From contig JAJZAW010000001.1 of the NCBI GenBank assembly GCA_021799185.1, forward strand, positions 1-52,149: a DNA stretch of 52,149 bases, written 5' to 3'. The notes beneath the pieces are model-generated. The model made no database searches, was not told where the DNA came from, and worked only from the letters and a program-made list of their open reading frames with translations. The translations under genes were made by a program, and so were the position numbers. The DNA comes from Thermoplasmata archaeon. GTDB lineage: Archaea > Thermoplasmatota > Thermoplasmata > Thermoplasmatales > Thermoplasmataceae. This document shows, one piece after another, positions 1-38,372 of this stretch (its first letter is position 1; each line of letters starts with the position of its first letter).

Positions 1-1853
1 AAATTCAAGGAGCAAGAAAATACAGAGATCTTGGCAGGAATGGTTACCTCAGAATTTCAAGCCATGGAATGATAGCAAGCAACAGAACGGCAGCCCTTGT
101 GGGTCTGAACGGTACAATAGACTGGGCATGCCTTCCAAATTTTGATTCACCTCCTGTTTTCGATTCTATACTGGACAAAAACAAGGGCGGTTATTTTTCA
201 ATCAAGCCCCATGATACAGAGAATCTTGAGGTCATACAGTCATACAAGGAACTCACCAATGTCCTCATCACAGAATTCATCAGGGACGGCAAGATCATTC
301 TGCGGCTGACGGACTTTATTCCAACATCTGATTATTCAACCATAAGCTTTCCGGAAATACACAGGATGGTGGAAACTACTTCTGAGGATGTTGAAGTCGA
401 TATTGCATTCAAGGCGACAATAAATTATGGAAAAAATGCGCCAATCATAGAGCAGAGGAAGAATGGTTTCATATTCCGGTACAGGGGTACCAAGGTGGGT
501 ATCGTAAGCGAGATACCGCTCTCCCGCGATGGTGACAGAGTCATCGGTTCCCAGAAAATACCAAGGCGTACATCAAGGTGGCTCATTGCGCTCTATGGTA
601 TTTCACATCTGGATGTTATCTCTGACTACAAATCCTACCAGAGGCTTGAGGATACCATCGATTACTGGCAGAAATGGAGCAACTCAACCACATACAGGGG
701 GCTGTACAATAACGATGTGAACAGATCTGCCCTCACACTAAAGGGGCTCTTCTTCGAACCGACCGGTCTAATGGTTGCAGCACCCACCACAAGCCTCCCT
801 GAGTGCATAGGCAGTGAGAGGAACTGGGACTATCGCTTTGCGTGGATAAGGGACACAGCCTATGTTATCGAAGCGCTTTCACTGATTGGCTACAAGAGGG
901 AGGCAACCAAGTTTCTCTATGATATGATGGATAAGATAGAGCATGAGGGCAGGATACGCACAATTTACCCCATAAACAGCAGTTCAAGCCTTGAAGAGAT
1001 GGAGCTGGATTATGAGGGCTACATGGGGTCAAGACCAGTCCGTGTTGGCAACAAGGCATCCGATCAGCTCCAGATAGATCAGATGGGCTCCATAGTAAAC
1101 GCAATCTGTGCACTCAGTGATGCTGGTGGCGTCATAAACTCGTATCTATGGAACTTTGTTGGCGAAACACTTGATCATCTCTCAACCTTATGGAAATCAC
1201 CGGATTCAAGTATCTGGGAATTCAGGACCGAGCCAAGGCATTATGTTTATTCCAAGGTCGTTTCCTGGTCTGCGTTCAACAATGCAATAGCCATGGGAAA
1301 AGATCAGGGCTTTTCAGGCCCATACAGGAAGTGGCGGGCCATTGCTGATGAGATAAAGGAGGATATAATTGCCAATGGCTTCAGCGAGGAGCAGAACAGC
1401 TTTGTGCAGTATTATGGAAGCAGTGAAACAGACGCATCTCTGCTCCGGATGCCGCTTCTTGGATTCCTTCCTGCAGATGATCCAAGGATTGTAGGAACTG
1501 TGGAAAAGATTGAGAAGGACCTCAGGGTCACCGATCACCTGTTTCGCAGATATCGGGAGGATGACGGTCTGAAGGGAGAGGATAATGCCTTTCTCCTGCT
1601 TTCATTCTGGTATGTGAACGTCCTGATCCAGATGGACAGGATTGATGAAGCCAAGGTTGTGTTTGAATCCATCCTTGACAGGGGAAACCATCTCGGTCTA
1701 TTTTCGGAGGAAATAGACTTTAAGACCGGTGATCAGCTGGGCAATTTCCCTCAGGCAATTACACACCTGGGTGTTATCAATGTTGCACTGCACCTGAATG
1801 AGGCATTCAAGGCTAGAGCCTCATTTCCAAGAAAGCGCCAGGCAGTAAAATAG
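1..1853 (+). CDS. Glycoside hydrolase family 15 (glucoamylase/glucodextranase-like), probably 5'-partial at the window edge
   Basis: The 594-aa ORF at 69..1853 has a GH15-type N-terminus (NRTAALVGLNGTIDWACLPNFDSPPVF) and a catalytic-domain signature (WDYRFAWIRDTAY). The frame stays open upstream of Met69 to base 3. The upstream residues (..GYLRISSHG) continue the conserved N-terminal block, so the real start is probably outside the window. Confidence 0.85.
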   Translation, partial: IQGARKYRDLGRNGYLRISSHGMIASNRTAALVGLNGTIDWACLPNFDSPPVFDSILDKNKGGYFSIKPHDTENLEVIQSYKELTNVLITEFIRDGKIILRLTDFIPTSDYSTISFPEIHRMVETTSEDVEVDIAFKATINYGKNAPIIEQRKNGFIFRYRGTKVGIVSEIPLSRDGDRVIGSQKIPRRTSRWLIALYGISHLDVISDYKSYQRLEDTIDYWQKWSNSTTYRGLYNNDVNRSALTLKGLFFEPTGLMVAAPTTSLPECIGSERNWDYRFAWIRDTAYVIEALSLIGYKREATKFLYDMMDKIEHEGRIRTIYPINSSSSLEEMELDYEGYMGSRPVRVGNKASDQLQIDQMGSIVNAICALSDAGGVINSYLWNFVGETLDHLSTLWKSPDSSIWEFRTEPRHYVYSKVVSWSAFNNAIAMGKDQGFSGPYRKWRAIADEIKEDIIANGFSEEQNSFVQYYGSSETDASLLRMPLLGFLPADDPRIVGTVEKIEKDLRVTDHLFRRYREDDGLKGEDNAFLLLSFWYVNVLIQMDRIDEAKVVFESILDRGNHLGLFSEEIDFKTGDQLGNFPQAITHLGVINVALHLNEAFKARASFPRKRQAVK

Positions 1854-1898
1854 CCGGTTTCAACTCATTTTCTCATTTTGCAAGAACCCATAATCTGA

Positions 1899-1906
1899 TT
1901 AATATA
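1899..1906 (+). promoter_or_regulatory. TATA-box-like element (TTAATATA) about 25 nt upstream of ATG 1928
   Basis: An AT-rich octamer sits at the spacing expected for an archaeal leaderless transcript starting at the first ORF of the polB cassette. Confidence 0.35.
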
Positions 1907-1927
1907 CCGGCGTATCTAGAGTAAGGC

Positions 1928-2341
1928 ATGCATGCCCCGCTCAGGATATTTTCAACGACATCGTTCCAGGCAGAAAATGTCAGGATTTTCATGAAGGAAT
2001 TCGAATCAGATATGGTGCATCTGCTCATCACAGATGGCATAATGTCTGATTTCAGGCACGAGTTTACCCGTGATGAACTTGGCATAATTATGGTACAGCG
2101 CGTACTGACATCCTTCCAGCTTCAGAAAATCCTCATGGATTCCGATGACAGGCCGCATTACATGGCACTGGCATCAGGCGTTGTTTCGTCATGGCCAGGC
2201 TCAATTGTGGCCAGCATTTACGATATAATCCGGATCATGAGTTACTACCATGGCTGCCCTGTTTACTTGAACATAATCGGCGATCCAGGCATAATGTCAA
2301 GGTACCTGGGCAACAGACCTGTGCACAGGGGGATGATCTGA
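1928..2341 (+). CDS. Hypothetical small protein, first gene of the polB cassette
   Basis: 137-aa ORF. Its stop (TGA 2339-2341) lies 1 nt before the next ATG (2343), and a TATA-like box lies 25 nt upstream. I recognise no family. An internal Met (MKEFESD..) is an alternative start. Confidence 0.5.
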   Translation: MHAPLRIFSTTSFQAENVRIFMKEFESDMVHLLITDGIMSDFRHEFTRDELGIIMVQRVLTSFQLQKILMDSDDRPHYMALASGVVSSWPGSIVASIYDIIRIMSYYHGCPVYLNIIGDPGIMSRYLGNRPVHRGMI

Positions 2342-2342
2342 G

Positions 2343-2573
2343 ATGGGAAGGAGTGTGCCAACAGCGCGTCAGGTGCTTGAGAATCTGGCGGAGGATCTGG
2401 ACAGGATGGCTTCAATAATGCCACAGTCACAGGCTGCAATAATGCATGATATGGTTATGATGGGCCGCAGGCATTCGGCAGAGATATCGTACTCCGGAGT
2501 CGATCCGTATACAGGTTTCCTGATATCCATCATAATTGATCTGTACTCGAGGATCAGGGAGGCTGAACAGTGA
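2343..2573 (+). CDS. Hypothetical small protein, second gene of the polB cassette
   Basis: 76-aa ORF preceded by AGGGGG about 11 nt upstream. Its TGA (2571-2573) is immediately followed by, and is in frame with, the polB ATG at 2574. I recognise no family. Confidence 0.5.
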   Translation: MGRSVPTARQVLENLAEDLDRMASIMPQSQAAIMHDMVMMGRRHSAEISYSGVDPYTGFLISIIIDLYSRIREAEQ

Positions 2574-4586
2574 ATGCACGGAACCATAGTTAATGCCACA
2601 GGTTCTGATACGATAAGGGTCTGGTATCTTGATCATGGCAGGATAAGCTGCCGGAATCACAGAAACAGAAGCTGGATATTCGTGTCAGGTGACATGTATG
2701 ATCTTGCATCTCTTGCCAGGCAGCTTGACGAATCAGACATATACGGATACAGCTTTGACACAATGCGGAATGTGCATGGCAATATTGCCGGCATCCGAAT
2801 ACCCGTATGGCCTTCCGGCATAAGGGACCTGATGGCAATCATAAACAGTATAGGCCTGGAGAGGAAATTCTCAATATACAACGGTGACATTGATCCGGTT
2901 CTGCGCTTCATGGCAGAGCGGAACCTTGGATTCTTCGCGCTGGAAGATCCCCTGGATCCGGATCCGGAGATACCAGTATCCACAATAGTTGGCCGTTCCA
3001 TGCTGGGAATCCCCTATGATATTGAGATAAATGGAATGCATTTTCAAAGGATAGATTCAGATGCCATATACGAGGCACATCGGGCGATAAACCTGGGCAC
3101 AATAATTGTATACAGCAACAGGGATGGATTCTTCAGCAAGATACTCCACATGATTCTCCATCAGGGCTACAGGCTGCCGCACGTAGTTTCATCTGACGGC
3201 TCCACATTTGAATCCTACGGGCAGACGCACTACAGCAATCCCCGTGTTTCCATTGAGGGGAAGATATGTATAGAATCTGATTCATTTGCATATTCTGAGA
3301 CCGGGATTCATGGGCTCATTGAGATATCACGAACATCGGGGCTACCCATTGTTGCAGCATCACGGGTCACCACTGGCACTGCCGTTTCAGCAATGGAGGA
3401 AGCCTATGCTGTAAGGAATGGTGTGCTGATTCCGGTCAGGAAGGATGATCATGAGGAGGCTAAGAGTGCAGAAGCACTTCTGAATACTGACAGCGGCGGT
3501 TTGGTTCTGCAGCCCGATCCAGGGATTTACACCGATGTCCATGAGATCGATTTTTCATCCATGTATCCTAGCATAATGGTCAGGTACAACATGTCGCCGG
3601 AAACCATCCAGAAGGGTGGTGGCATAAAAATTCATGGCACTCCGTATTCCATTTCAGGAACAGAGCGTGGCTTTCTTGCATCCGCACTGGATGGCCTTCT
3701 TAAAAGGCGGCTATTCTACAAATCTGTAAAGGCAAAATCAGGGCTGTACAGCATGAGGGATGCAGCCCTCAAATGGATGCTTCTGACATCGTTCGGGTAC
3801 ACAGGATACAAGAACGCCAAGTTCGGGAAAATAGAGATACATGAATCGATAACAGCCATGGGAAGATGGGCGCTGGCAATGGCCATGAACATATCGCGGG
3901 TTAACGGCTTCACTCTAATACACGGCATAGTGGATTCACTCTGGATAACCGGCTCAGGGGACGTGAGAAATGTGCTTTCCCAGATTCAGGACAGGACCGG
4001 CATAGGCATGGTTGAGGACGGCCACTACAGATGGATCGTATTCATGCCGGCAAATTCTGGCCTTGGGGCGCTGAACAGGTACATTGGCCTTCGCATGGAT
4101 GGTACAGTCAAGGTTCGTGGCTTGTATGTAAGAAGGCGTGATGCACCACCGGTATGCACAAAATTCCAGTTGGAGGCCATAGAGATTCTGAGGAAATGCA
4201 TGACACCGGATGATATCTGGGCAAAACGTAAGGAGATCAGGGACTTGGAAAGCAGTTATATGCGTTCCCTCAGGCACCGTCCTGTTGAAGACTTCAGGAT
4301 ACCACTGCATGTAACAAGAAATCCTGAGGAATACGCTGTCCACAATATACAGGGGATGGCAATCAGGGAAGCCATGGACAGGGGATACCGGATAATGCCC
4401 GGGAGCCGGGTCGGGGTTGTTGTAGTGGATCACAATCATGGCATTGTTGATCTGGACGGCACACATGACAGGATCGACCTGAAGTTTTATGAAAGGCAGG
4501 TATCAATGGCATTCAGGCAGATTGATTTTATCGTGGATTCATGCTCACCGCACAGGAAGGCAGACCTCTTCAGTTTCTCCTTATGA
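2574..4586 (+). CDS. polB: Family B DNA polymerase, divergent (PolB2-like, with degenerate exonuclease motifs and motif C)
   Basis: The 670-aa product has motif A (IDFSSMYPSIM) and motif B (KWMLLTSFGYTGYKNAKFG). Motif C reads HGIVDS rather than YxDTDS. The palm/thumb region aligns by eye to archaeal PolB (VRGLYVRRRDAPP). Exo I is YDIEI, and Exo II/III are not recognisable. GGGAGG lies 12 nt upstream of the ATG. Confidence 0.85.
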   Translation: MHGTIVNATGSDTIRVWYLDHGRISCRNHRNRSWIFVSGDMYDLASLARQLDESDIYGYSFDTMRNVHGNIAGIRIPVWPSGIRDLMAIINSIGLERKFSIYNGDIDPVLRFMAERNLGFFALEDPLDPDPEIPVSTIVGRSMLGIPYDIEINGMHFQRIDSDAIYEAHRAINLGTIIVYSNRDGFFSKILHMILHQGYRLPHVVSSDGSTFESYGQTHYSNPRVSIEGKICIESDSFAYSETGIHGLIEISRTSGLPIVAASRVTTGTAVSAMEEAYAVRNGVLIPVRKDDHEEAKSAEALLNTDSGGLVLQPDPGIYTDVHEIDFSSMYPSIMVRYNMSPETIQKGGGIKIHGTPYSISGTERGFLASALDGLLKRRLFYKSVKAKSGLYSMRDAALKWMLLTSFGYTGYKNAKFGKIEIHESITAMGRWALAMAMNISRVNGFTLIHGIVDSLWITGSGDVRNVLSQIQDRTGIGMVEDGHYRWIVFMPANSGLGALNRYIGLRMDGTVKVRGLYVRRRDAPPVCTKFQLEAIEILRKCMTPDDIWAKRKEIRDLESSYMRSLRHRPVEDFRIPLHVTRNPEEYAVHNIQGMAIREAMDRGYRIMPGSRVGVVVVDHNHGIVDLDGTHDRIDLKFYERQVSMAFRQIDFIVDSCSPHRKADLFSFSL

Positions 4587-5682
4587 GCGCTTCCACTTTC
4601 TCCTCAAGGACAGAAACAGGAATATCATTTATTCCTATAAGCTTGGCAACTCCCTGCCTGTCACCGCGCCCAACCACTCTCCCCTCTACAATGCCCAGAT
4701 TCTCAAGCCTCTTCACGGATCTGTAAACTGCCGTGTTTTCCCTGAGGCTCACACCAAACTGTTCCGAGACGATCCTGACATCCTCCAGAACGCATGACAT
4801 GGAGGTGCTCGGCTCATCCCTGAGGCAGTGGCAGATCGACAGCAGGACAGCTAAATCCAGCGGGTCCAGTTCGCTTAGCTTGCTTTCAGTCACATATGGG
4901 TTGATCATGGATTGAGCAGCCCTGACATCCTCTATGGAAACAGATGTGCCATCACGATATTCACAGATGTATATTGATTTCTGGAGAAGTTCTATGGCAA
5001 CTCTTGCACTTCCGAATGGCCCTGCAACATGGCCTATGTGCCCGAGCATTTCGCCATTTATGGACCCGGGCACCATTGCTATTCTTGCCCTCTCCTCAAT
5101 GATCCTCACCAGCTCATCCTCTGAGTACCTGTTGAAAAGTATGCTTGAAAAGACGCCAAGGGATTTCCTGTCCCTCTCGGTCATGTAAATTGATGGGTCC
5201 TCCATTGATACAAGAACGGTTGATACCGGAGTGGAATAGATCTCTCCTGCCCTGAGGAGATTGTAAAGCCCGTCCCTTTCAAACTTTATGAGGTTTGTGG
5301 CCTCATCAATAACAAGAACGATCTTTCGTCCCTTCTTCTGGGAAACCATGTTGAATCCCCTGAAAATGTCCGAGTATGACATGTTCCTGGAGCCCACAAG
5401 CTTGCCCATGTTATACAGGGCATCAATGAGGAGCATCTTCAGGCTGGAAAAAGACAGGGCATTTTCATAAATAATTATGAACCCCTTCTCCTCCCTGGCA
5501 AGATACTTCATGGTGGAAGTCTTTCCTGTACCGGAATCGCCGAAAGCCACAAGATTGCTGCTTATGCCTGATCTGAGGGGTTCAAGCATGGTCTTTCTTA
5601 TGGTCTCTATCTGAACATCCCTGAACCTGAGTTTCTGGGGCACATATGAAAAATCAAGAGCATCAGGATTTCTGACTATCAA
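4570..5682 (-). CDS. cdc6: Orc1/Cdc6 family AAA+ protein (divergent paralog)
   Basis: The 370-aa product has Walker A (GDSGTGKTS), Walker B (VLVIDEA) and a C-terminal winged-helix-like region (VYRSVKRLENLGIVEGR). It starts at a TTG. Its 3' end overlaps the polB 3' end by 17 nt. Confidence 0.9.
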   Translation of the reverse strand: MIVRNPDALDFSYVPQKLRFRDVQIETIRKTMLEPLRSGISSNLVAFGDSGTGKTSTMKYLAREEKGFIIIYENALSFSSLKMLLIDALYNMGKLVGSRNMSYSDIFRGFNMVSQKKGRKIVLVIDEATNLIKFERDGLYNLLRAGEIYSTPVSTVLVSMEDPSIYMTERDRKSLGVFSSILFNRYSEDELVRIIEERARIAMVPGSINGEMLGHIGHVAGPFGSARVAIELLQKSIYICEYRDGTSVSIEDVRAAQSMINPYVTESKLSELDPLDLAVLLSICHCLRDEPSTSMSCVLEDVRIVSEQFGVSLRENTAVYRSVKRLENLGIVEGRVVGRGDRQGVAKLIGINDIPVSVLEEKVEALIRRN

Positions 5683-5703
5683 CAGAATGTATATTGAATC
5701 GGG

Positions 5704-5713
5704 TTAAAATAAG
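5704..5713 (-). promoter_or_regulatory. TATA-like box (minus-strand TTATTTTAAC) about 26 nt upstream of the orc1/cdc6 TTG start
   Basis: An AT-rich element in the 41-nt gap between the radical-SAM stop and the orc1 start. The spacing fits a leaderless transcript. Confidence 0.35.
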
Positions 5714-5723
5714 TTTAGAGGGA

Positions 5724-7403
5724 TCAGGCTCCGCTCATGGCAGCAAGTGAGTGGAACTCGTCCTTCTGGTCCAGCCCCCATTTCTTGACCTTCTCGATAT
5801 CAACGCCCTTCTTCCTGGCAATTGATTCAACGTACTTCATCATCAGGAGACCTCCTCCTGATATGAGAGAGCCGGTTCCGAGCCTTGCGATTATGTTTCC
5901 ATGGGCATCTCTGAAGCCATCCCTTGATGCCATCTTTGCCAGGTGCCTGTAGGATGCGTAGTACACAGCAAGCTTATCAGCGTCAAGAACATCAGTGTTG
6001 AGTTCCCTGGATTTTATTCTGCCTAGTGGTACGTTTACCAGCGGGGTCACTGTGAATTCAAACGGTCTTCCCAGGGCATATGAATTGCTGAGCCGGTTTA
6101 CCATTGCAATGGTATCCCACATGTCTTCAACGGTCTCGCCTTCCTGCCCAACCTGTATTGTGAAAGCAGGCCTCCAGTAGTTCCTGGTCTCAACAAACAC
6201 GCCCTGCCATACAATTTCCTGCCAGCTTCCATCAGGCCCAATCTTCAGCGGAAGAGTCTTATTTGGCATGTGCCTTCTTGCAAGTTCATCGCTGCCTGTT
6301 TCAACGCCTGTCTGGATTCCAACCCAGTTCCTTGGCCCTGTTTTCAATATCTTGGAAAGCTTCTCCATCATTTCCGGGTAGCCTGCAGGTATGGATATCC
6401 TTCCATGCGTCGGGTTGGATGTTTTTATGCCAGGAACGCCTATGGCAGCGGAAAAGAGCTCGGAAAGCGCTTCCTCATTGGGTGCGAACATGTTTCCGTG
6501 TTTGTAGCCGAAGATCTCATCGGAGTGAAGCCATGCGTTGTCAATACCGCCCCTCTGGTTCACCTTTATCTCGTTGACAATCCTCTCCACGGAATTGTAC
6601 CTGAGGGGGCGCAGTGTAACCTCGCAGAAGTCACAGCCGACACCGCAACCCCTCATGACCTCAACCATTCCCTTCATTGAGGGGTTTACTATCTCTGGAA
6701 TATCATCGAGCCTGGGATAAGCAGATTTTGTCAAACCTCTGGCAAGGAACAGATCATCATTCTTAACAACCTTCTTGAAGCCATCATCGTATGTCATATA
6801 GCCCCTGTGGAAGAGTGTGCTGTCTATGCTGTCCTCAGCAATCTGCTCAAAGAGGGTTTCAGCGATATCATCGATCTCTCCCTGGACAATATAATCAAAG
6901 TTGTATTTCCCTATCTCATCTCTCAGTATTGTGAATTCCCAGACTCCGGGCCCACCCACAATAAGCTTCGCTTTCTTGCCCGCCCTTGCGGCATTTATCC
7001 TGGCTATGAGAGAATCCCACTCCTTGCGGACCCAGGCCATCATTTCGCCGCCAAAAAGCGCATAATATGACATTGTTGTTGGGCCTATCCCAAGGGGATC
7101 CATTGTGGAGACCCCTATGACCTTTGTATCATCAGTTATGAATCTGTCAAGATAATCTTCATGAGCCACAGCAACATCTTTTTTCGGGAACTTCCGAAGG
7201 AGGGCAGCTTCAACCTTTCTAAGTGCATATGGTGCAAAAACGGCCTCGCCGTTTGGGTGGGCCGGCGGGGCTGGCCCCTTGAGAAACCTGTATACGGGCC
7301 CCGGAATTGCCTGCCCAGGAGCACACGGCAGAAAATCCAGCAGGGGAAAATTCCTGTATTCGTAACTCAACGTGGAATCTGATACCAGAACAAATTTGGT
7401 CAT
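5724..7403 (-). CDS. B12-binding-domain radical SAM protein
   Basis: The 559-aa product has the CxxxCxxC cluster motif (RGCGVGCDFCEV) preceded by an N-terminal Rossmann-like (B12-binding-type) region. Confidence 0.85.
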   Translation of the reverse strand: MTKFVLVSDSTLSYEYRNFPLLDFLPCAPGQAIPGPVYRFLKGPAPPAHPNGEAVFAPYALRKVEAALLRKFPKKDVAVAHEDYLDRFITDDTKVIGVSTMDPLGIGPTTMSYYALFGGEMMAWVRKEWDSLIARINAARAGKKAKLIVGGPGVWEFTILRDEIGKYNFDYIVQGEIDDIAETLFEQIAEDSIDSTLFHRGYMTYDDGFKKVVKNDDLFLARGLTKSAYPRLDDIPEIVNPSMKGMVEVMRGCGVGCDFCEVTLRPLRYNSVERIVNEIKVNQRGGIDNAWLHSDEIFGYKHGNMFAPNEEALSELFSAAIGVPGIKTSNPTHGRISIPAGYPEMMEKLSKILKTGPRNWVGIQTGVETGSDELARRHMPNKTLPLKIGPDGSWQEIVWQGVFVETRNYWRPAFTIQVGQEGETVEDMWDTIAMVNRLSNSYALGRPFEFTVTPLVNVPLGRIKSRELNTDVLDADKLAVYYASYRHLAKMASRDGFRDAHGNIIARLGTGSLISGGGLLMMKYVESIARKKGVDIEKVKKWGLDQKDEFHSLAAMSGA

Positions 7404-7745
7404 TTTCTGTTACTCCTTATTGGAGAGCTAAATGTACTTTATTGATAAATATTTTGCCAAAATATTCAGGAAAATTTTACGGATTTCCAAGAAAAAAATA
7501 CTTTTTCCAGTAAATGAATATGGCAAGAAAGTATAAATATAGCTGGCATGTCTGACAAAATGGAGACTGCAAAATCGGTGTTTTCTTCATAAAGTTTGAA
7601 GTTTATAAATTTCTGAATAGCAATACCACATATTTTTCAAGACATTATGGCTAAGACCACAGATCATGCGGAATTAGCCCCATGATACATATGCATGCTT
7701 TCAGCCAGTCAGATAATGTAACGAAAAAGTAAGGATACATGAAAA

Positions 7746-7756
7746 TTGTCCGACAA
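7746..7756. promoter_or_regulatory. Palindrome TTGTC-C-GACAA abutting the TATA box of the sugar-porter gene (candidate operator)
   Basis: A perfect 5+1+5 inverted repeat lies directly upstream of AAATTTATAG (7757-7766), which is about 26 nt from ATG 7788. A near-identical copy, TGTCTGACAA, is at 7549-7558. Confidence 0.3.
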
Positions 7757-7787
7757 AAATTTATAGCCGATCCCGGGCTTTTGGACA

Positions 7788-9221
7788 ATGGAAATCGCAG
7801 GCACCGGAACAGGAGAAAGGATACTGGAAAGACTCGATAACGGGAAGACATCCAGATTTTTCTGGCTTCTCACCATCCTGTCAACAATTGGAGGATTTCT
7901 GTTTGGCTATGACACGTCCAATATAGGCATCGTTGAAGGTTTTCTCCCTTCAGGCTATGTTACGGTGAATCCATTCATTAAGGGATATCTGTTTTCCGGG
8001 GTCTCTCTGGGAGCCGCTGTGGGCGCACTCATTGCAGCGGGGCTTATTGACAGATACGGCAGAAAGTATATGCTCATATTCGATGCTTTCCTCTATAGCC
8101 TGGGGGCAATACTGTCAGCTGTTACCGTGGACCTCTTCATGCTCCTGGTCTCCAGGACACTCATAGGAATAGCCGTTGGCGCTGATTCTGCCATTGCAAC
8201 TGCATACATTGCAGAATGGGCCCCAAAGAAGAGGAGGGGCAGTTTCAGCATATTGCAGCAATGGATGATAACCGTAGGGATACTGGGTGCATATCTCATT
8301 GGACTTGCAGTCCTTTACGGTCTCCCATCACAGGCCTTCAACCTCGACTGGCGTATCATGCTTGGTGTTGCAGCAGTGCCGTCAATTATAGGCCTAGGCT
8401 TCAGGTTCATAATGCCGGAATCACCCAGATGGCTGGTTCTTAAGGGCAAATACGATAAGGCAGTTCAGTCTCTGAAGAGGCTCGGCGTAGATACCAATGA
8501 GGAGGAACTGAAGAGGGAATACCCCATCTCATCGGCCGTTAGGAAGAGAATGACGCCAGGCGTCAAACGTGCATTCATCATAGTAGGTCTGTTCATGATG
8601 TTCCAGCAGATCACAGGGATAAACATACCGTTCTACTACGGGCCGCTCATAATAAGCAGTCTTCACCTTGTTGGTTCTGCTGGCAGCAGCAGTGTGATTA
8701 GTGAGGAATTTGCAGTGGAGGCAGCATCAATATTTGCCGTGATAAACGTTGCTGCCACATACATAGGTTTCAAGCTCATTGACAGGGCAGGCCGAAGGAC
8801 ATTAGCCATTACCGGATACACGGGAATGGCGGTCTTTGGCTTTCTCGGTGCAGCCCTGAAGTATGCGAACATTGACATTGGAATGCTTGTTGCCATGTCC
8901 CTGTTCATAGTATTCTTTGCCTTTGGCGTTGGAGGAACCGGATGGATAATACAGGGCGAGTATTTCCCCACGGAATACCGTGGCACCATGGCATCGCTGA
9001 TTGCATTCATAGACTGGATCGCTAACTTTGCCATCGTAGAGATATTTCCATTCATGGACAGCACAATACACATTGCAGGTTCACTCGTCGTCTTTGGCGT
9101 GCTCTCGGTGGCTGCAGCTGCCACATTCTATGTGATAATGCCCGTCACCAAGGGAAAGTCAGTGGAGGAGATAACAGAGATGTTCGATCAGATGGCATCC
9201 CAGGGCAGCATCAAGACATGA
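7788..9221 (+). CDS. MFS sugar porter family transporter
   Basis: The 477-aa, roughly 12-TM product has sugar-porter signatures: DRYGRKYML, PESPRWLV, and the C-terminal PVTKGKSVEEI. Confidence 0.9.
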   Translation: MEIAGTGTGERILERLDNGKTSRFFWLLTILSTIGGFLFGYDTSNIGIVEGFLPSGYVTVNPFIKGYLFSGVSLGAAVGALIAAGLIDRYGRKYMLIFDAFLYSLGAILSAVTVDLFMLLVSRTLIGIAVGADSAIATAYIAEWAPKKRRGSFSILQQWMITVGILGAYLIGLAVLYGLPSQAFNLDWRIMLGVAAVPSIIGLGFRFIMPESPRWLVLKGKYDKAVQSLKRLGVDTNEEELKREYPISSAVRKRMTPGVKRAFIIVGLFMMFQQITGINIPFYYGPLIISSLHLVGSAGSSSVISEEFAVEAASIFAVINVAATYIGFKLIDRAGRRTLAITGYTGMAVFGFLGAALKYANIDIGMLVAMSLFIVFFAFGVGGTGWIIQGEYFPTEYRGTMASLIAFIDWIANFAIVEIFPFMDSTIHIAGSLVVFGVLSVAAAATFYVIMPVTKGKSVEEITEMFDQMASQGSIKT

Positions 9222-22949: not shown

Positions 22950-24764
22950 TTACAGGGAATAGTAGTCCAGCCCGAGCCTCTTTATGGTCTCCTTTGTCGG
23001 TATCCCCTTCTCGTTCCAGCCCCTTACACGATAATAATCCTTTAGAAGGTAATCCAGAGGGAACGTGTTCCCCTTATCCGGCCCCTTTTCCAGCGCCTGC
23101 TTCATGAACCTTTCGGGAAGCCTGTCCTGTTCAGGTTTTATGCCAGCCTTGAGGTTGAAGAGCCTTTCAAGGTTCCAGGTTCTTTCTGCAGCTAGCATTA
23201 TTTCATCCTTTGTGTAATCAAAGGCTGTAACGTCGTTGACAAGCGCAATATAGTCATCAAGATTCAGTGCGAAGGACGGGAACTGGCATAATCCTGAGGA
23301 ATCCATGACCTCTGTGAAATCCTGCACATACTTGACAAGCGCTGCCTTGCCCTCCTTTTCAGTTGGCTTGGAGACCGGCTCCACGCCAAGTATTTCATTA
23401 GATATGGTGTATGCTCTCATGTGGGACCCTCCAATGTTGCTGGTGGCATATGCAAGCCCTATCCCGTATGCGCCCCTGGGGTCATACGCCGCTATTTCCT
23501 GGCCCTTTACGCTCATGGATGCATTTTCATCCCCGTATTTGCGGGCTAGCCTCAGGGATCCCTCAGCAAGATCATTTCCAAAGTCCTTTCTGTAAGCCAG
23601 CTTTGCAGAGGCCTCAAGGACAAATGATGAGTTGCCGAAGACAGGTTTCGTAGGCCCAACAACGCTGTCAGGTATTTTCTTTTCGCTGTAAAGTTCCATG
23701 GCTGCAGAGAGTGTGTTTCCAGCTGTTATTGTGTCATATCCCAGCCTGTCCGCGTTGTCATTCGCAGCTATCACCGTGTAAAGGTCGTGTATGCCCGTGT
23801 TGGGGCCCAGGGCCCATGTGGATTCGTATTCAGGGCCCTCGGACTCCCTTTCATTGTATCTGGATACCCTGCCGCATGAAATTGGGCATGCAAAGCAAGG
23901 TGTATTTCTTATGAGATATGTGTCAGCAAGAGTTTCTCCGCTCACCATGTCTGCAAGCGGATCATTTCCGGAATCCATGTAATTTTTTGTGCCGAATATT
24001 CCGGACTGGTTGATTATGTTCACAAGCACCTCGGTCCCATAGGCAGGGAGTCCCTGGCTTGTTACAGGGTTTGCCTTGATCTTCTTGAGCATTGCTGCCA
24101 GCGTATCCCTGTACCTTCCAGCATGTCCGATCTGGGGCATCTTTCCCGTAGATGCCACAACAGCCTTAAGATTCTTTGAGGCCATCACGGCTCCAACTCC
24201 ATTTCTTCCCGCCGTCCTGTGCTTATCATTGACAATTGATGCGAATTTGACCAGGTTCTCACCTGCCGGCCCTATGCAAGCAACGGAAACGTTGACTCCA
24301 GTCTCGGCCTTCAGCGTGTCATCGGTCTGAAACACATCCTTTCCCCACACATGGGTTGCGTCACGGAGTTCGGCTTTCCCGTCATGAACATAAAGATATA
24401 CGGGATGATCAGACTTTCCGGTGAAAATTATCATGTCAAAGCCGGAGTGTTTTAATTTTGCCCCGAAGAATCCTCCGGAGTTGCTCCTTGTTATTGTGCC
24501 GGTCAGTGGGCTCTTTGTCACTGCCATGTATCTTGCGGCGGTGGGAGAACTTGTGCCGGTCAGTGGGCCAGGCGCCATAATGAGGACATTGTCCGGGGAC
24601 AGCGGATCTACCTTTGGATCCACCTCATCCACAAAATACCTTGTGGCCAGCCCCTGTCCGCCTATGTAATCCCTGGCCCATTTCATGTTCGTGTCCTCAA
24701 TGCTGATTGTGCCCTTTGAGAGATTTACCCTCAGAAATTTGCCCGTATATCCACCATAGCTCAT
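22950..24764 (-). CDS. aor: Aldehyde:ferredoxin oxidoreductase (tungstopterin AOR family)
   Basis: The AOR N-terminus (MSYGGYTGKFLRVNLSKG) begins at the internal Met at 24764. The Fe-S motif (CFACPISCGR) is present. The length from that Met is 605 aa. A TATA-like GTATATATTC lies about 30 nt upstream (24791-24800). The ORF-track extension to 24881 is hydrophobic junk. Confidence 0.9.
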   Translation of the reverse strand: MSYGGYTGKFLRVNLSKGTISIEDTNMKWARDYIGGQGLATRYFVDEVDPKVDPLSPDNVLIMAPGPLTGTSSPTAARYMAVTKSPLTGTITRSNSGGFFGAKLKHSGFDMIIFTGKSDHPVYLYVHDGKAELRDATHVWGKDVFQTDDTLKAETGVNVSVACIGPAGENLVKFASIVNDKHRTAGRNGVGAVMASKNLKAVVASTGKMPQIGHAGRYRDTLAAMLKKIKANPVTSQGLPAYGTEVLVNIINQSGIFGTKNYMDSGNDPLADMVSGETLADTYLIRNTPCFACPISCGRVSRYNERESEGPEYESTWALGPNTGIHDLYTVIAANDNADRLGYDTITAGNTLSAAMELYSEKKIPDSVVGPTKPVFGNSSFVLEASAKLAYRKDFGNDLAEGSLRLARKYGDENASMSVKGQEIAAYDPRGAYGIGLAYATSNIGGSHMRAYTISNEILGVEPVSKPTEKEGKAALVKYVQDFTEVMDSSGLCQFPSFALNLDDYIALVNDVTAFDYTKDEIMLAAERTWNLERLFNLKAGIKPEQDRLPERFMKQALEKGPDKGNTFPLDYLLKDYYRVRGWNEKGIPTKETIKRLGLDYYSL

Positions 24765-25135
24765 GATACCACTGAGAATTAAACCGATCTGAATATATAC
24801 GGGTTTGCCTGTGCTGAAAAACCTGTGTGAAATGATTGGAAAAAGCAGCATCGTATGCGTATTTACCTTTCCGTAACTCATGCTTGTTTAATTCAGCTGA
24901 TACGGGTGAATCACAGGCCCTCCTGCAATGGTGCCCTATGCTGCATGGGTTCCGCCAGTTGCGGGTTAAGAAAAACCGCCCGGCCCGATTTCAACTGCAG
25001 CTAGCCCCGTGTGACCCTCTGCGAGCTTGCAGCAGAATACCGGGCTGTAAACGGCAATGCTGGCAACAGGCAAGGGATAAAATATCCATGTGCCGAATAG
25101 ATAAAAATAGGTAATGGTTGAAGATTCTTAAAAGT

Positions 25136-26995
25136 TCATTGCGAGAAATCCACTGACAGTTCCTTCATGACCTCAGTGGAAGGCTTCCCGTCAGCATCAA
25201 TGCCAACTTCCTGAAGGTATTCATCAACCATGGCACGATAGTCCACGGTAACGCCGGCAGTTGGCCCTGCCTTGAGTGGCGGCTCGCCAACCATTCTGGA
25301 AGGCGGGGCAATCTTTCTTGGATTGATGCCCTCTCTGTAGTTAAAAAGATGCCTAAGCAGCTGTATCCTCTTTCCCATGGCCATAATCTCATCCTCGGAC
25401 ACATCCCATCCCATGATGGACTTGAACAGCTTGTAGTATGGATAGGTATTCGGCCATACTGAAGTTGAAAAGAGGCACATCCCGGTTGCGTTCAGCACCT
25501 GAGCACCATAGACAGACAGCGCCTGCATCCTCCCCTTTCCATGGTATGAGTACCTGTTGATCTTCTCCCTGGGGTAACTGTACTTGAATGGCAGCGTCAT
25601 TGTTCCCCCTTCGTCAAACCCGAGCCCGCCTGCGGTATGCCTTCCTGGCGTAGGATCTGCAATATATGTTGTGGCGAGGCTTGGAAGAAGCCTGGGATCG
25701 TGCATTGGAAGATCCTGGCCTCCAACATGCATTGCGAACTTCTCACTGCCCTTGCCGAACTTTTGCGCAGCATATTTCGCTCCCATTCCAAGTACCGCGC
25801 CTATGCCCTCGCCTCTGCCAATCATTTCTGTGAGCTTTACCATTGCATCCGCGTCTCCGAAGCCAATCCTGAAACCCACATCCTTCTCGGTTATTATGCC
25901 TCTTTCGAAGCATTCGTTTGCGAAGGCTATGACCGCACCAACTGAGATTATGTCCATTCCCGCCCTGTTGCACATCTCAAATGCCATGGCCATGGCGTCC
26001 AGATCGGTGTTAAGATTAAGCCCCCCAAAGGAGCCGGTCCCCTCATATTCAAGCCTGTGCCCCTGGATCTCGCCAAAACGCGTCTTCCTTCTAACATGAC
26101 CGCCACACGCAAGTGTGCACTGAGCGCACCCATAGGACTTCAGCTTATCCTTAGCGATCTCCTCGCCGCTTATTTTTCTGGCGTTATCCGCACCATAATC
26201 TATTATGCCCACTCCTGCCCAGTTCTTTATGGGAGTGTCCCCATTGAGGTGGGAGGATTCTGTGCCTGCGGTTGTGCCGTAAAGCTGCCACGGTCTTGCA
26301 AGATCTATGTTCTTCCGGAATTCTATCTGAATCTCCTTTATGGTCTCCATGAGCATTGCCTGGTCGAAGGGCTTGAATGTGGGTTTGCCCCTGACTATGA
26401 GCCCCTTCAGCCTCTTTGATCCCATAACTGCTCCAATCCCGGACCGCCCTGCTGCCCTGCCATAATCATTCATGAGGGAAGCAACGAGCAGTTTTTTCTC
26501 CCCCGGAACGCCTATAACAAGTGCCTGCCCCTTTGGCTCTATCTTCCTGAGTTCATCCTCTGTCTCATACGCATCCTTGCCCCAGAGATTTGAGGCATCT
26601 TCTATGGATGCTGCCCCATCAACGATCTTGAGGTAAACCGGCTTCGGCGAAATGCCCCGGACAAATACGGCATCATAGCCTGAATTCTTCAGTTCAGGGC
26701 CGAACTTTCCACCGCAGTCTGCATCCCCCCATCCTCCGGTCAGTGGAGATTTTGCCACCACCTGGAATCTTCCGCCAAGGGGCACGGAATGGCTGTTGAA
26801 TATTCCTGTTGTGATGCCCAGTATGTTTTCCTCGCCCAGTGGATCTGCCCCGGGTTTCATGTCTCTGTTCAGTATGTAAGCTCCAAGACCGTATCCAGTC
26901 AGGTATTTTCTGTATATTTCTTCAGGAATTTTTTCTTCCCTTATGCTGCCCTTTGACAGGTCAACATGCAGAATCCTTCCATTAACGCCGTACAT
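25136..26995 (-). CDS. AOR-family tungsten/molybdenum oxidoreductase paralog
   Basis: 619-aa product with the N-terminus MYGVNGRILHVDLSKG, the Fe-S motif GCAQCTLACGG, and AOR-like pterin-binding blocks. Confidence 0.9.
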   Translation of the reverse strand: MYGVNGRILHVDLSKGSIREEKIPEEIYRKYLTGYGLGAYILNRDMKPGADPLGEENILGITTGIFNSHSVPLGGRFQVVAKSPLTGGWGDADCGGKFGPELKNSGYDAVFVRGISPKPVYLKIVDGAASIEDASNLWGKDAYETEDELRKIEPKGQALVIGVPGEKKLLVASLMNDYGRAAGRSGIGAVMGSKRLKGLIVRGKPTFKPFDQAMLMETIKEIQIEFRKNIDLARPWQLYGTTAGTESSHLNGDTPIKNWAGVGIIDYGADNARKISGEEIAKDKLKSYGCAQCTLACGGHVRRKTRFGEIQGHRLEYEGTGSFGGLNLNTDLDAMAMAFEMCNRAGMDIISVGAVIAFANECFERGIITEKDVGFRIGFGDADAMVKLTEMIGRGEGIGAVLGMGAKYAAQKFGKGSEKFAMHVGGQDLPMHDPRLLPSLATTYIADPTPGRHTAGGLGFDEGGTMTLPFKYSYPREKINRYSYHGKGRMQALSVYGAQVLNATGMCLFSTSVWPNTYPYYKLFKSIMGWDVSEDEIMAMGKRIQLLRHLFNYREGINPRKIAPPSRMVGEPPLKAGPTAGVTVDYRAMVDEYLQEVGIDADGKPSTEVMKELSVDFSQ

Positions 26996-31902: not shown

Positions 31903-34900
31903 ATGACTGAAACTATTAAGGAATCAGTGAAGGAAAAAACAAAAACAAAACAGGGCAACAAATGGCTGCATTATGATCCAAGACCAAGAGACTGGGAGAA
32001 AATTTATCGCAACAGATGGGACTACAGCAATGTGGTGAGGTCCACACATGGGGTCAACTGCACGGGCTCCTGCAGCTGGAAGGTCTATGTAAAGGATGGG
32101 ATAATAACCTGGGAAACACAGGCAACTGATTATCCATCAAACGGGTATAACTTTCCCGAATATGAGCCGAGAGGGTGCCCCAGGGGCGCTACATTTTCAT
32201 GGTATACCTACAGCCCCATGAGGGTGAAATACCCCTATATAAGAGGCGAACTGCTGAAACTGTGGAGGCAGGAGTTAAATGAGTCGGATAATCCAGTTGA
32301 AGCATGGGAAAAACTGACATCCGACCCGGAAAAAAGGCAAAAATACGTCCATGCCAGGGGAAAAGGTGGACTTGTGCGAAGCTCCTGGGAGGAGGTATCC
32401 CGGATAATATCTGCATCCCTTTTATCCACCATCAGGAAATATGGGCCGGATAGAATAGCTGGTTTCACTCCGATTCCCGCGATGTCCATGGTAAGCTACG
32501 CCTCCGGTTCGAGATTTTTATCCCTTATTGGGGGAAGCATGCTCAGTTTCTATGACTGGTACGCCGATCTGCCGCCTGCATCTCCCCAGATATGGGGTGA
32601 ACAGACAGATGTACCGGAAAGTGCTGACTGGTACAATTCGAAGTATTTCATAATATGGGGCACCAACCTTCCTATGACAAGGACCCCTGATGCCCATTTC
32701 ATGGTGGAGGCAAGGTACAATGGTACTAAGGTCGTTGGGGTGAGCCCCGATTACGCTGAATACATAAAATTCGCTGATGTATGGCTTCCAGCAAGGGCTG
32801 GGACAGATGCCGCCCTGGCACTTTCAATGGCCCATGTTATTGTAAAGGAATTTTACGTTGACAGGCAGGAGCCTTATTTTATAGATTATTCTAAAAAATA
32901 CACTGATCTTCCGTTCCTTGTGATACTTGACAGGGATGGAGATTCCTATGTATCTGGCAGATTTCTGCGTGCCAGTGATATGGGTTCCACCGAAGACAAA
33001 GCCCAGTGGAAAACTGTCATGTGGGATGCTAAGACCGGCAGACCGGCCATACCCATGGGAAGCGTCGGATACAGGTGGGATGGCTCATCCAAATGGAATC
33101 TGAAGCTTGAAACGGGAGATGGGCATCAAATAGAGCCTGCTCTGACATTTCTTGGAATAGAAGATATGATTGTGAAGGTCCAGTTTCCAGACTTCACAGA
33201 AGAGACAGGGAAGATTTCCTTCAGAAATATACCCGCCAAGACGCTGAAATTAAAAGATGGCAGAGAGATAGTAATAACAACAGTATTCGATCTCTTTGCA
33301 GGCAATCTGGGTGTGCCACGAAATATTGACGGAGACAAGGCGCTTAATTATGATTCCAACACTGCCTACACTCCCGCATGGCAGGAAAGGATAACGGGTG
33401 TAGACAGAAAGCTCGCGATCAAAGTTGCCAGGGAATTTGCCGAAAATGCAGCCCTGACGCACGGAAAATCAATGATTGCAATGGGTGCCGGAACCAATCA
33501 CTGGTATAATAGTGATGTCATCTACAGGAGCATAATAAGCCTGGTGCTTCTTACAGGGAGTCAGGGCGTTAATGGCGGAGGATGGGCACATTATGTTGGC
33601 CAGGAAAAGGTAAGGCCTTTCGAAGGCTGGAATAATATAGCCTTTGCTTCTGACTGGTATCCTGCTTCAAGATTGCAGAACGGAACATCATTTTTCTATC
33701 TTTCTTCTGATCAGTTCAGGTTTGAACAGAAAACTAACCCGCTTGCATTGACACCCTTCAAGGGCGAGTATACCGACAAACATCCTGCCGATCTTATTTC
33801 AATGGCGGTAAGGCTGGGCTGGCAGTCGAGCTATCCGCAATTCAACAGGAACCCGCTGGATCTCGCCCGGCAGGCTCTCTCCAAGGGCTGCAGCACGGAC
33901 GCCGAGATATCGGATTATATCATATCAGAGGTTATGAAAGGTGACCTCAGATTTTCTGTTGAAGAGCCAGATAACCCTGTGAATTTCCCCAGAATTCTTT
34001 TCAACTGGAGATCGAACCTTCTGGGCACACAGGGTAAGGGACATGAATACATCATAAAGTATCTGCTCGGAACTGGCGGCCATCCACTGGGCAATCCGGA
34101 GGAAAGCTGGAAACCTGAAGATATCAATGTCCCTGAAAATATACCGGAAGGGAAACTGGACCTTGTTGTAGATCTTGATTTTAGGATGTCAGGCTCTGCT
34201 CTATATTCAGATATTGTGCTTCCATCGGCCACGTGGTATGAGAAATTTGACATAAGCAGCACGGACATGCACCCTTTTATTCACCCCTTCAACGCCGCAA
34301 TTTCTCCACCGTGGGAAACCATGTCGGACTGGGAATCCTTCAAGTACATTGCAAAGGCATTTTCCAGCATGGCAGAAAAGTATCTCCCGGAAGCAGATGA
34401 CCTCATGGTCAACTCCATGCAACATGATACTCCTGGCGAAATATCCCAGCCTTTTGGTGTCATAGATGACTTCAAGAAAACGGGAAAGAAGCCGGCGGGT
34501 GGAGTTAACTTTCCTCTTGTGACCATCCTGAAGAGAGACTATGTCCATATATACGACATGATGGTTACGCTTGGCCCCCTTGAAAGGGAAAGGATTGCTG
34601 CAAAAGGTGTCGTCATCAGCGGTAAAAATGCTTATGAAGAACTTTTGAGGAAAGTGCCACAGTACAGCAAGCCGGGACCGGCGAGAGACCTTGCCATGAT
34701 GCTGGATGAAAGGCAGGTCGCAGAGTCAATAATGACAATATCAGGCGCCACAAACGGGAAGCGGGCCAAAGAAGAATGGGGCTTTATGGAAAAAAGGACC
34801 GGCTTGCAACTTGTGGACTCGTTCCACGGAGATGAAGAAATAAGCTATAGTTTTGATGACCTGGTTGCGCAACCCAGGAGGGCAATGACATCCCCAGTAT

Positions 34901-37060: not shown

Positions 37061-37635
37061 AGAGTTTTGAACCTGATCTGCTGAATGCATGTGCCATAAT
37101 CCTTGATTACCCTGATTATAATACCGCTGAAGATGAAATTTCAGCCATAAACGAGCAGTACCATGGAGAAAGCGATTCAGTGGCTGTTTTTCTGGATTAC
37201 CTTAAGGCAAAGGACATAATTGATCTGCAATCGGAATATGTTGATACATTTGATCTTTCCGGAACCCCTCTTTTTCTCACAGCCTGGGAATTCGGTGACA
37301 GCAGGAATCGTGGGCCTGAACTGATGAAGCTCAAGAAGATGATCGAATCCAACGGCTTCAGGATAAGAAAAGGCCAGATTCCGGATTATATCCCGCTTCT
37401 CCTTTCGTTCATTTCTGAAATTGGGCCTGAAAAAATCCCGCAGGATTTTGAATCCAGGCTCCACAGATATTTTGAAACTCTCAGTAACAAGCTCCGCAAC
37501 ACCATTTACGGTTCAATCTTCCTAATGCTGTCGGATATTTTTCAGGAGATGGTGCCACTGCCCGAGATAAGTCCCGAGAAAGCCGATTCGGGGGAAATGC
37601 CATTTCCATTGAGGTATAACGGGGAGGAGTACTGA
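37057..37635 (+). CDS. narJ: Nitrate reductase assembly chaperone
   Basis: 192-aa acidic protein in the narJ position with a NarJ-like core (LQSEYVDTFD, PDYIPLLLSFIS). It has a TTG start that overlaps the narH stop. Confidence 0.85.
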   Translation: MKSFEPDLLNACAIILDYPDYNTAEDEISAINEQYHGESDSVAVFLDYLKAKDIIDLQSEYVDTFDLSGTPLFLTAWEFGDSRNRGPELMKLKKMIESNGFRIRKGQIPDYIPLLLSFISEIGPEKIPQDFESRLHRYFETLSNKLRNTIYGSIFLMLSDIFQEMVPLPEISPEKADSGEMPFPLRYNGEEY

Positions 37636-38372
37636 TGGTAAACTTCCTTTCACAGCTTGCCTGGGTAATATACCCTTATCTTTCATTCTCGCTGATGGTA
37701 ATTGGCGTTGTTTACAGATTCAGAAACAGGCCGCTTACAATAACATCCAAGTCCAGTGAGCTCCTGGAGAGGCGAAATCTTGCCTGGGGCTCAAGGGCAT
37801 TTCACTATGGAATTATATTCGTTATACTGGGCCATTTCGCAGGCCTTTTTGTGCCCTTATCATTCCTGCACAGCATTGGAGTTTCGGATTATCTGAACTT
37901 CATTGTTTCTGTTCTTGCAGGTGGCGTATTTGGCATCATGGCATGGATTGGGCTTGCCATACTCATAGGAAGGAGGCTGTTAATTAAGAGAGTGCGTGTT
38001 ACATCCAATTTCGCAGATACATATGTTCTCATCCTTCTTCTAGTCATAATGTCCTTTGGCCTCTCCCTGACCCTGGGATATGATCCTCTATACGGATCAC
38101 TCGCATACAACACTGCGATGTCAAATATAAGCCAGTGGATCACGGGTTTCTTTTTATTTCATCCTGATGCAGCATATATGAGCACAGTTCCACTTATCTT
38201 CAAGATCCACATACTGATTTCATTTCTGCTTTATCCCTCCATACCATTCACGAGACTCACGCACATATTCACAACGCCTGTTCGTTATCTGTACAGGAAG
38301 CCTATTGTCTTCAGAAGCATAGAAGGTCAGAATACCAACAGTGAAGCAATGAATACGCTGAGATTCAAATGA
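37635..38372 (+). CDS. narI: Nitrate reductase gamma subunit (di-heme b, quinol-oxidising)
   Basis: 245-aa, 5-TM product with the paired heme-ligand histidines (AFHYGIIFVILGHF, and KIHILISF..RLTHIF). Its ATG shares an A with the narJ TGA. Confidence 0.9.
   Translation: MVNFLSQLAWVIYPYLSFSLMVIGVVYRFRNRPLTITSKSSELLERRNLAWGSRAFHYGIIFVILGHFAGLFVPLSFLHSIGVSDYLNFIVSVLAGGVFGIMAWIGLAILIGRRLLIKRVRVTSNFADTYVLILLLVIMSFGLSLTLGYDPLYGSLAYNTAMSNISQWITGFFLFHPDAAYMSTVPLIFKIHILISFLLYPSIPFTRLTHIFTTPVRYLYRKPIVFRSIEGQNTNSEAMNTLRFK

Follow-up and report, generated by a model that had tools for sequence, protein, structure and literature searches.

A predicted PolB2 mutasome operon with a strongly reduced iRadA-like gene and an adjacent Orc1/Cdc6 paralog in a Thermoplasmata archaeon

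We analyzed a 52,149-nt stretch of DNA from a Thermoplasmata archaeon (contig JAJZAW010000001.1, positions 1 to 52,149 of the forward strand; hereafter the window), in which positions 1864-5682 very probably hold an iRadA-PPB2-PolB2 operon, a predicted "PolB2 mutasome", together with an associated Orc1/Cdc6 paralog. Both the operon and its Orc1/Cdc6 neighbor are already known, from literature dating to 2013-2014, from structural modeling in 2025 and from curated NCBIfam and Pfam models. The PolB2 operon was reportedly first described by Makarova and Koonin in 2013. Its combination of PolB2, arCOG07300 and an inactivated RadA (iRadA), with arORC2 as a neighbor, was described by Makarova et al. 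(2014, PMC4104785). A first-pass annotation of the window had regarded the three open reading frames (ORFs) as an unexplained unit with two unrecognizable small members; both small products belong to described families, one to PPB2 (DUF8156) and the other, on the evidence below, to a reduced form of iRadA. That annotation had also proposed a PolB2-group polymerase with two accessory subunits, serving damage tolerance and encoded in one transcription unit, a proposal that the published operon supports by analogy (PMC4104785, PMC11791011). The accessory-subunit part draws further support from conserved gene order, two iRadA-PPB2 fusions, purifying selection, the PPB2 signature and a RecA-like predicted fold.

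The features of the locus, in window coordinates, are as follows.
1864-1880, + strand: CTCATTTT-CTCATTTT(G), a direct repeat in tandem and candidate regulatory element in the promoter region of the operon
1899-1906, + strand: TATA-like box TTAATATA, recognized by its resemblance to the consensus, as read from the sequence
1928-2341, + strand: iRadA-like gene, 137 amino acids (aa), first gene of the operon
2327-2332, + strand: AGGGGG, Shine-Dalgarno-like, 10 nt before the PPB2 start codon; putative function
2343-2573, + strand: PPB2 gene, 76 aa (arCOG07300 / Pfam DUF8156)
2557-2562, + strand: GGGAGG, Shine-Dalgarno-like, 11 nt before the polB2 start codon; putative function
2574-4586, + strand: gene for a PolB2-group family-B DNA polymerase, 670 aa
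4570-5682, - strand: gene for a divergent Orc1/Cdc6 paralog of 370 aa with a TTG start, converging on polB2

The coordinates and stop-to-start packing of the three operon genes were reproduced exactly, with TGAgATG at the iRadA/PPB2 junction (read as ATCTGAgATGGGA) and TGAATG at the PPB2/polB2 junction (read as CAGTGAATGCAC). The purine-rich boxes previously noted before the second and third ATG are present 10-11 nt away, and the TATA-like box claimed for the first gene is found with its center approximately 25 nt 5′ of the first ATG. Boxes such as CTTAATAT or CTTATTAA occur at an equal distance from the ATG upstream of related loci. This position would imply a leaderless or near-leaderless transcript. 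At the other end of the operon, the polB2 and orc1 reading frames share 17 nt (4570-4586), confirming the 3′ overlap originally reported, along with the GDSGTGKTS motif and the TTG start of the Orc1/Cdc6 paralog.

This arrangement is conserved. Our comparison set comprised 86 loci fetched around polymerase homologues, of which L001-L066 are from Thermoplasmata and L067-L086 are methanogen or bacterial-labeled. The iRadA-PPB2-PolB2 order recurs in all Thermoplasmata loci with upstream sequence (n = 64), with the iRadA-like gene first in the operon in 64/64 and a PPB2 homologue directly 5′ of polB2 in the window and in 64/64. The iRadA-PPB2 junctions in these loci are either overlaps, mostly of 25 or 37 nt, or gaps of 0-8 nt. 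Relative to the closest relative, L007 (dS 0.6-1.35), the ratio of nonsynonymous to synonymous substitutions (dN/dS) is 0.105 for iRadA, 0.044 for PPB2 and 0.083 for PolB2, and all three operon genes are under purifying selection. The two small ORFs are therefore neither absent from relatives nor unconstrained. Because the gene order recurs in relatives and dN/dS is low, the three-gene arrangement exceeds what chance would produce. For the window, linkage and selection are thereby shown, and so is gene identity, which in the case of iRadA comes from fold and position.

The PPB2-PolB2 pair is kept together far beyond Thermoplasmata. PPB2 lies directly 5′ of polB2 in 15/20 of the methanogen or bacterial-labeled loci, which include Methanoregula and other Methanomicrobiales, a Methanomassiliicoccaceae locus and one Deltaproteobacteria-labeled metagenome-assembled genome. 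On the Deltaproteobacteria-labeled contig (L084, 3435-7707), an ORF of approximately 215 aa that looks LexA-like by eye is followed by iRadA, PPB2 and PolB2, an order that fits the published bacterial form. In bacteria, lexA takes an orc1-like place next to polB2 (PMC4104785, PMC11791011).

The 76-aa protein is PPB2 (arCOG07300 / DUF8156), a small helical partner of PolB2. Local Pfam and NCBIfam scans gave no usable match for it, and a protein search returned few but clear homologues; a precomputed match to Pfam PF26485 (DUF8156) exists for a protein identical to the window product and for one relative. The family was described as the small helical protein of the PolB2 operon (Makarova et al. 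2014, PMC4104785), and received the name PPB2 from Timinskas et al. (2025, PMC11791011), who showed its N-terminal arm, of MGRT type and with Arg3 and Arg9, to be conserved. The N-terminus of the window protein, MGRSVPTAR, fits this motif, and in an alignment of 23 sequences, one published haloarchaeal PPB2 among them, M1, G2, R3 and R9 each reach 90% conservation or more. A hidden Markov model built from Thermoplasmata sequences only matches published PPB2 proteins at 52.2 bits (methanogen), 34.7 bits (haloarchaeal), 23.9 bits (bacterial) and 12.4 bits (S. islandicus). In the AlphaFold2 model (predicted local distance difference test, pLDDT, 91.5), residues 1-7 form a free arm that is followed by helices at 8-23, 28-42, 45-51 and 55-75; a Foldseek search of the PDB with this model found no significant match, a sigma-factor complex appearing no better than at E 8.

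The 670-aa protein belongs to the PolB2 group, judging from family matches, motifs and homology combined. Its full length is covered by the NCBIfam equivalog NF004416 ("type B DNA-directed DNA polymerase"), at 577 bits (cut-off 516), and Pfam DNA_pol_B also gives a match (E 1e-19). Its best PDB match is 5mdn (129 bits over 378 aa), with Sulfolobus PolB1 and Thermococcus PolB structures at about 80-85 bits, and PDB polymerases align to it solely from residue 242 onward. Published PolB2 sequences are nearer per aligned residue than 5mdn: a Sulfolobus PolB2 (Dpo2) fragment is 35% identical over 253 aa (151 bits), and a methanogen PolB2 is 31% identical over 408 aa (172 bits), N-terminal region included.

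Aligned to 5mdn, the active-site motifs remain degenerate, as had been claimed. Motif A (DFSSMYPS) pairs with DFSSMYPN; motif B, KWMLLTSFGY (K-WMLLTSFGY), pairs with K-VMANAMYGY, with Asn replaced by Leu and Tyr by Phe; motif C, IHGIVDSL, pairs with IYGDTDSL, the first Asp being lost and the second retained; and NRY of the KxY motif, annotated as LNRY, pairs with KRY (Lys to Asn). Motifs A, B and C are invariant in 13 homologues down to 38% identity, as are D326 in motif A and D454 in motif C. The string HGIVDSLW, labeled IVD, is present at least 128 times in the published table of PolB2 proteins (PMC11791011). One motif assignment did not hold up: YDIEI, read as Exo I in the first-pass annotation, is not conserved even in close homologues. 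Because of this, and because residues 129-241 hold no D or E that all the aligned homologues share, the protein has no recognizable exonuclease site. A replicative PolB3 was considered and rejected: the motifs are degenerate, an exonuclease site is lacking and NF004416 is matched. The gene should be annotated neither as "DNA polymerase I" nor as replicative.

At its C-terminus (...RKADLFSFSL; window 4540-4586), PolB2 carries a loosely conserved [DN]L-x-x-[FY], which could be a weak candidate for a PCNA-binding motif. Methanogen loci have a clearer motif, QxTLE[VG][FS], located at the iRadA C-terminus instead.

The first gene of the operon encodes the protein that departs most from its published counterparts. 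Its AlphaFold2 model (pLDDT 85.4) consists of five alternating beta-alpha units, and the PDB structures matched by this model in Foldseek include a chain of the BCDX2-CX3-RAD51 supercomplex (E 7e-4), humanized RadA (4e-3) and RAD51 (5e-3), with KaiC, FlaH, UvsX, RecA and DnaB among further matches. Neither a GxxxxGK[ST] Walker A nor an hhhhD[ED] Walker B is present in the 137-aa sequence, which is also too short to hold an N-terminal helical domain. In methanogen loci, the equivalent position is occupied by an ORF of about 175 aa that matches published iRadA with 99.6% hhalign probability. In two loci, L028 and L037, iRadA and PPB2 are joined in one reading frame that keeps MGRT or VGRT internally, and an iRadA-PPB2 fusion has been described previously (Timinskas et al. 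2025, PMC11791011). From predicted fold, position and fusions, we conclude that the 137-aa protein is most plausibly a strongly reduced, catalytically dead iRadA, the link by sequence being weak.

The reduction continues within Thermoplasmata. Most relatives have a 154-aa iRadA, and the window lineage, L001 and L007 stop 17 residues earlier, at 137 aa. The last ~8 codons of the 154-aa form overlap the PPB2 start (window equivalent 2285-2345; L002 8441-8465), and the conserved W-x-E of this tail is probably an out-of-frame reading of the conserved PPB2 segment ATGGGAAGG. Among RecA-family proteins retained as polymerase subunits, the Thermoplasmatales iRadA, at 137-156 aa, may be the most reduced.

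The gene converging on polB2 encodes a protein with AAA_22, Cdc6_lid and winged-helix Cdc6_C domains; a second Orc1 or second PolB was not found within the window. The proposed linkage between orc1 and polB is conserved across Thermoplasmata: a convergent orc1 homologue lies 3′ of polB2 in 56/67 Thermoplasmata sources, and the 3′ ends overlap in 42 of these 56. Enrichment of orc1/cdc6 (arORC2) next to polB2 has been reported (Makarova et al. 2014, PMC4104785; Timinskas et al. 2025, PMC11791011). The gene directly 5′ of orc1 on the same strand (window 5724-7403, -) encodes a 559-aa protein with a B12-binding domain and a radical SAM domain, which reaches only 42 bits against TIGR04013; this neighbor is found in 39/55 loci. 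As the gap between the two genes is only a few nt in several loci, orc1 may be co-transcribed with it.

Upstream of the operon, the promoter region contains a repeat. In the window it reads CTCATTTTCTCATTTTG (1864-1880), contains ATTTTC and lies approximately 20 nt 5′ of the TATA-like box. A tandem (C/T)TCATTT with a period of 8-9 nt precedes the first operon gene in nearly all Thermoplasmata loci, with up to three copies in I-plasma-like loci, and the copies fall between about -54 and -69 relative to the start codon. The exact 15-mer CTCATTTNCTCATTT has no second occurrence in the window, even when two mismatches are allowed, and in 19 fetched loci it is found once per locus, always 5′ of the operon. 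Across 1.08 Mb of loci, a degenerate form of the tandem pattern was matched 40 times, in each case at the operon start. TCATTTT is found in 37/46 non-redundant upstream regions, compared with a background probability of 0.035. A metagenome scan with the 16-mer CTCATTTTCTCATTTT gave at least 120 matches, all unrelated, and none with the operon among the matches listed.

Methanogens have a comparable element. ACTTTC is present in 11/12 of their upstream regions and CACTTTC in 9/12; the related pattern CAYTTT(N)C is matched between -58 and -63 relative to the iRadA ATG, and in Methanomicrobiales the element CACTTTC[GA]C stands at about the same distance as the Thermoplasmata repeat. Both the CTCATTT repeat and CACTTTC resemble the Sulfolobus DNA-damage element 5′-ANTTTC-3′, which is bound by Orc1-2 (PMC6061795); the similarity is short and the spacing different, so that we offer the resemblance as a hypothesis only. 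The tandem repeat is possibly a new item, as the papers on the PolB2 operon (PMC4104785, PMC11791011) make no mention of such an element.

Tentatively, the tandem CTCATTT(T) could be a damage-response operator with CACTTTC as its counterpart, both related to ANTTTC, and the adjacent Orc1/Cdc6 paralog could be the protein that reads the repeat; we regard this combination as possible but doubtful. Were it true, an SOS-like circuit in which an Orc1 paralog controls PolB2 would be ancestral to archaea and not specific to Sulfolobales. The promoter repeat is a concrete candidate binding site for damage regulation by Orc1 paralogs in euryarchaea, and the one lead here worth following; cultured relatives exist in Thermoplasma, Cuniculiplasma and Oxyplasma.

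Several observations weigh against the reading of this locus as a PolB2 mutasome operon with a regulatory Orc1 neighbor, and they bear on each of its parts in turn. The first part is the neighbor itself, which may instead be the chromosomal replication initiator, or one of several, its adjacency to polB2 being inherited synteny with no regulatory meaning. Its Walker A (GDSGTGKTS) and Walker B (VLVIDEA) are intact in a full AAA+, lid and winged-helix set, and it is nearer to the initiator-type Sulfolobus Cdc6-1 (80 bits, its best PDB match) than to Aeropyrum ORC2 (34 bits), with Pyrobaculum Cdc6 (68 bits) and Cdc6-3 (37 bits) in between. The whole neighborhood, including trehalase and radical SAM genes, is syntenic in close relatives. 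Adjacent orc1 is absent within ~6 kb in the I-plasma-like loci (L054-L062, L064, L065) and in the methanogen loci, groups that still keep a promoter motif. The motif is also not enriched 5′ of orc1 (2/32 regions), and by the same count autoregulation of orc1 on the analogy of Orc1-2 is not supported.

We nevertheless consider this reading unlikely. The gap between orc1 and the gene upstream is 41 nt and its 3′ end overlaps polB2, leaving no space for an origin beside it; an ORB-like or origin-like repeat family was not found around orc1 (1700-8000). The protein scores far below the cut-offs of all NCBIfam ORC1 equivalog models (TIGR02928: 150 bits, cut-off 181). Moreover, the link to polB2 persists in Thermoplasmata lineages whose other flanks differ, and the enrichment of orc1/cdc6 beside polB2 extends over many archaeal lineages, with lexA in the analogous place in bacteria (PMC4104785, PMC11791011).

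The second part is the polymerase. Beyond the loss of the first Asp of motif C, both the Asn and Tyr of motif B and the Lys of KxY are replaced, so that PolB2 activity may be low. In the loop before motif A, D306 is invariant and the next residue is K or R in 9/13 homologues and A or T in two others; the window and its nearest relative read DSGG, where most PolB2 carry the PPB2-contacting D(K/R)GG. With the lack of an exonuclease site and a tightly linked Orc1/Cdc6 gene of initiator-type best match, the losses in motifs B, C and KxY could be taken to mean that the polymerase is catalytically dead and that the complex serves replication structurally or as a regulator (in alternative initiation, or in controlling an origin together with Orc1) and has no part in translesion synthesis. 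Such a role was reportedly the original proposal of Rogozin in 2008. It was raised again by Makarova et al. (2014, PMC4104785). We hold it to be highly improbable for the protein in the window: the two principal metal-ligand aspartates, D326 and D454, are invariant; Dpo2, with the same IxD substitution, is an active extender of mismatches and lesions and is needed for damage-induced mutagenesis (PMC8764526, PMC11791011); and bacterial homologues adjoin lexA, by our reading of the L084 sequence and in the literature (PMC4104785).

The third part is the 137-aa protein, which could be an unrelated, lineage-specific small alpha/beta protein that came to occupy the first place in the Thermoplasmata operon and whose RecA-like matches reflect a generic Rossmann-like topology. 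Several sequence comparisons point this way. Pfam and NCBIfam scans gave no usable match, the sole trace being recomb_radA at an E-value of 0.14, and the iRadA-like alignments from Thermoplasmata and from methanogens, used as profiles against the PDB, found no meaningful match. An exhaustive search of 1.84 billion representative proteins with the family profile matched only 24 clusters, and a bridge to canonical RadA was not found among them; the family is narrow and fast-evolving. By hhalign, it shows weak similarity to methanogen iRadA (probability 25%, E 7.7e-4) and none to Sulfolobus iRadA. The structural matches are themselves modest, with query-normalized template modeling (TM) scores of 0.5-0.6 and root-mean-square deviations of 4-6 Å, and they include thymidine kinase and peptidase E. 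Against this, the strongest fold matches (E < ~0.005) are almost all to the RecA superfamily, and the sole conserved stretch, covered by the weak hhalign alignment, pairs QRILTSYQL with RRAFTAHQL of methanogen iRadA (QRILTxxQL / RRAFTxxQL). Operon position, PPB2 overlap and fusions are as in published iRadA, and iRadA lineages degraded until HHpred alone detects them are already known (Makarova et al. 2014, PMC4104785). We therefore judge an unrelated protein very unlikely.

Finally, a mobile element or casposon was rejected, as the flanks are housekeeping genes with conserved synteny.

For the PolB2 mutasome operon, homologous systems offer a mechanism, from which assembly, translesion function and damage induction would carry over by analogy. 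In Sulfolobus, Dpo2 alone among the polymerases is induced by damage; it needs Orc1-2 for this, and without Dpo2 there is no targeted mutagenesis (PMC6061795, PMC11791011). A PolB2-iRadA-(PPB2)3 complex has been modeled at high confidence (Timinskas et al. 2025, PMC11791011). In the window, a single leaderless mRNA would start ~25 nt 3′ of the TATA-like box, and translation of PPB2 and polB2 would begin from the Shine-Dalgarno-like sites and be coupled to the stop codon that precedes each gene. PolB2, iRadA and a PPB2 trimer are expected to form one assembly, with the conserved MGRS arm of one PPB2 inserted between PolB2 and iRadA. Having no proofreading site and keeping D326 and D454, PolB2 might then serve damage tolerance, like Dpo2, by extending primer ends that are mismatched or lie opposite a lesion. 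More speculatively, damage might induce the operon through the tandem CTCATTT element, with the neighboring Orc1 paralog as the regulator that binds it.

Among known systems, the closest is the class 1a PolB2 mutasome (iRadA-PPB2-PolB2; PMC11791011). The two agree in their three gene families, the gene order and the shared strand, and the window also has an IVD-type motif C, a PPB2 N-terminus of the form MGR[ST] with R9, an iRadA that likewise has neither ATPase motifs nor an N-terminal domain, iRadA-PPB2 fusions with an internal start in relatives, and an adjacent orc1/cdc6. It differs in four respects: its iRadA is 137 aa long, compared with ~168-190 aa in the two published iRadA sequences compared; this protein has no detectable sequence similarity to Sulfolobus iRadA; the window lineage has lost ~17 C-terminal iRadA residues carried by most relatives; and the PolB2 loop reads DSGG in place of D(K/R)GG.

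The Dpo2 system of Sulfolobus/Saccharolobus, with SiRe_0614/0615 and the Orc1-2 damage regulon (PMC6061795, PMC7390963, PMC8764526), is related through its polymerase, 35% identical over the 253 aa compared. Dpo2 and the window PolB2 both lack the first Asp of motif C, and PPB2 is homologous in the two. The Sulfolobus element is a T-rich, non-palindromic ANTTTC 5′ of the B recognition element (BRE)/TATA, reading ATTTTC in upsX, a string also included in the window repeat. In contrast to the window, Sulfolobales have the gene order PPB2-PolB2-iRadA (class 3a), and Orc1-2 is not adjacent to the PolB2 operon. Furthermore, the S. acidocaldarius element occupies positions -44 to -39 relative to the transcription start, whereas the window repeat is at approximately -61 to -48 and is tandem. 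The window Orc1 is not demonstrably an Orc1-2 orthologue.

A similar logic is found in the E. coli Pol V mutasome (UmuD'2C-RecA), which combines a proofreading-free lesion-tolerance polymerase, a RecA-family protein and a small oligomeric partner, and which is encoded next to or under a damage regulator (PMC11791011). Pol V belongs to family Y rather than B and uses an active RecA in place of an inactive RadA-like subunit, making this an analogy and not a shared membership.

As a system, the window locus adds little to these descriptions; its noteworthy parts are the promoter-element lead and the extreme reduction of iRadA. For annotation, the names PPB2 and iRadA-like can replace "hypothetical protein" for the two small products, both in the window and in dozens of metagenome-assembled genomes of Thermoplasmata.

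Elsewhere in the window, positions 22950-26995 (-) encode two adjacent aldehyde:ferredoxin oxidoreductase paralogs of 643 and 619 aa. A narGHJI-like respiratory nitrate reductase operon occupies 31903-38372 (+), with genes for a molybdopterin alpha subunit (1224 aa), an Fe-S beta subunit, a delta chaperone and a gamma subunit. A Mutator/IS256-family transposase at 46169-46924 (-) is split over at least two ORFs, covering model positions 157-279 and 306-378, and is probably a decayed insertion sequence. The sole RNA gene detected in the window is a tRNA-Glu (TTC) at 50054-50130 (-).

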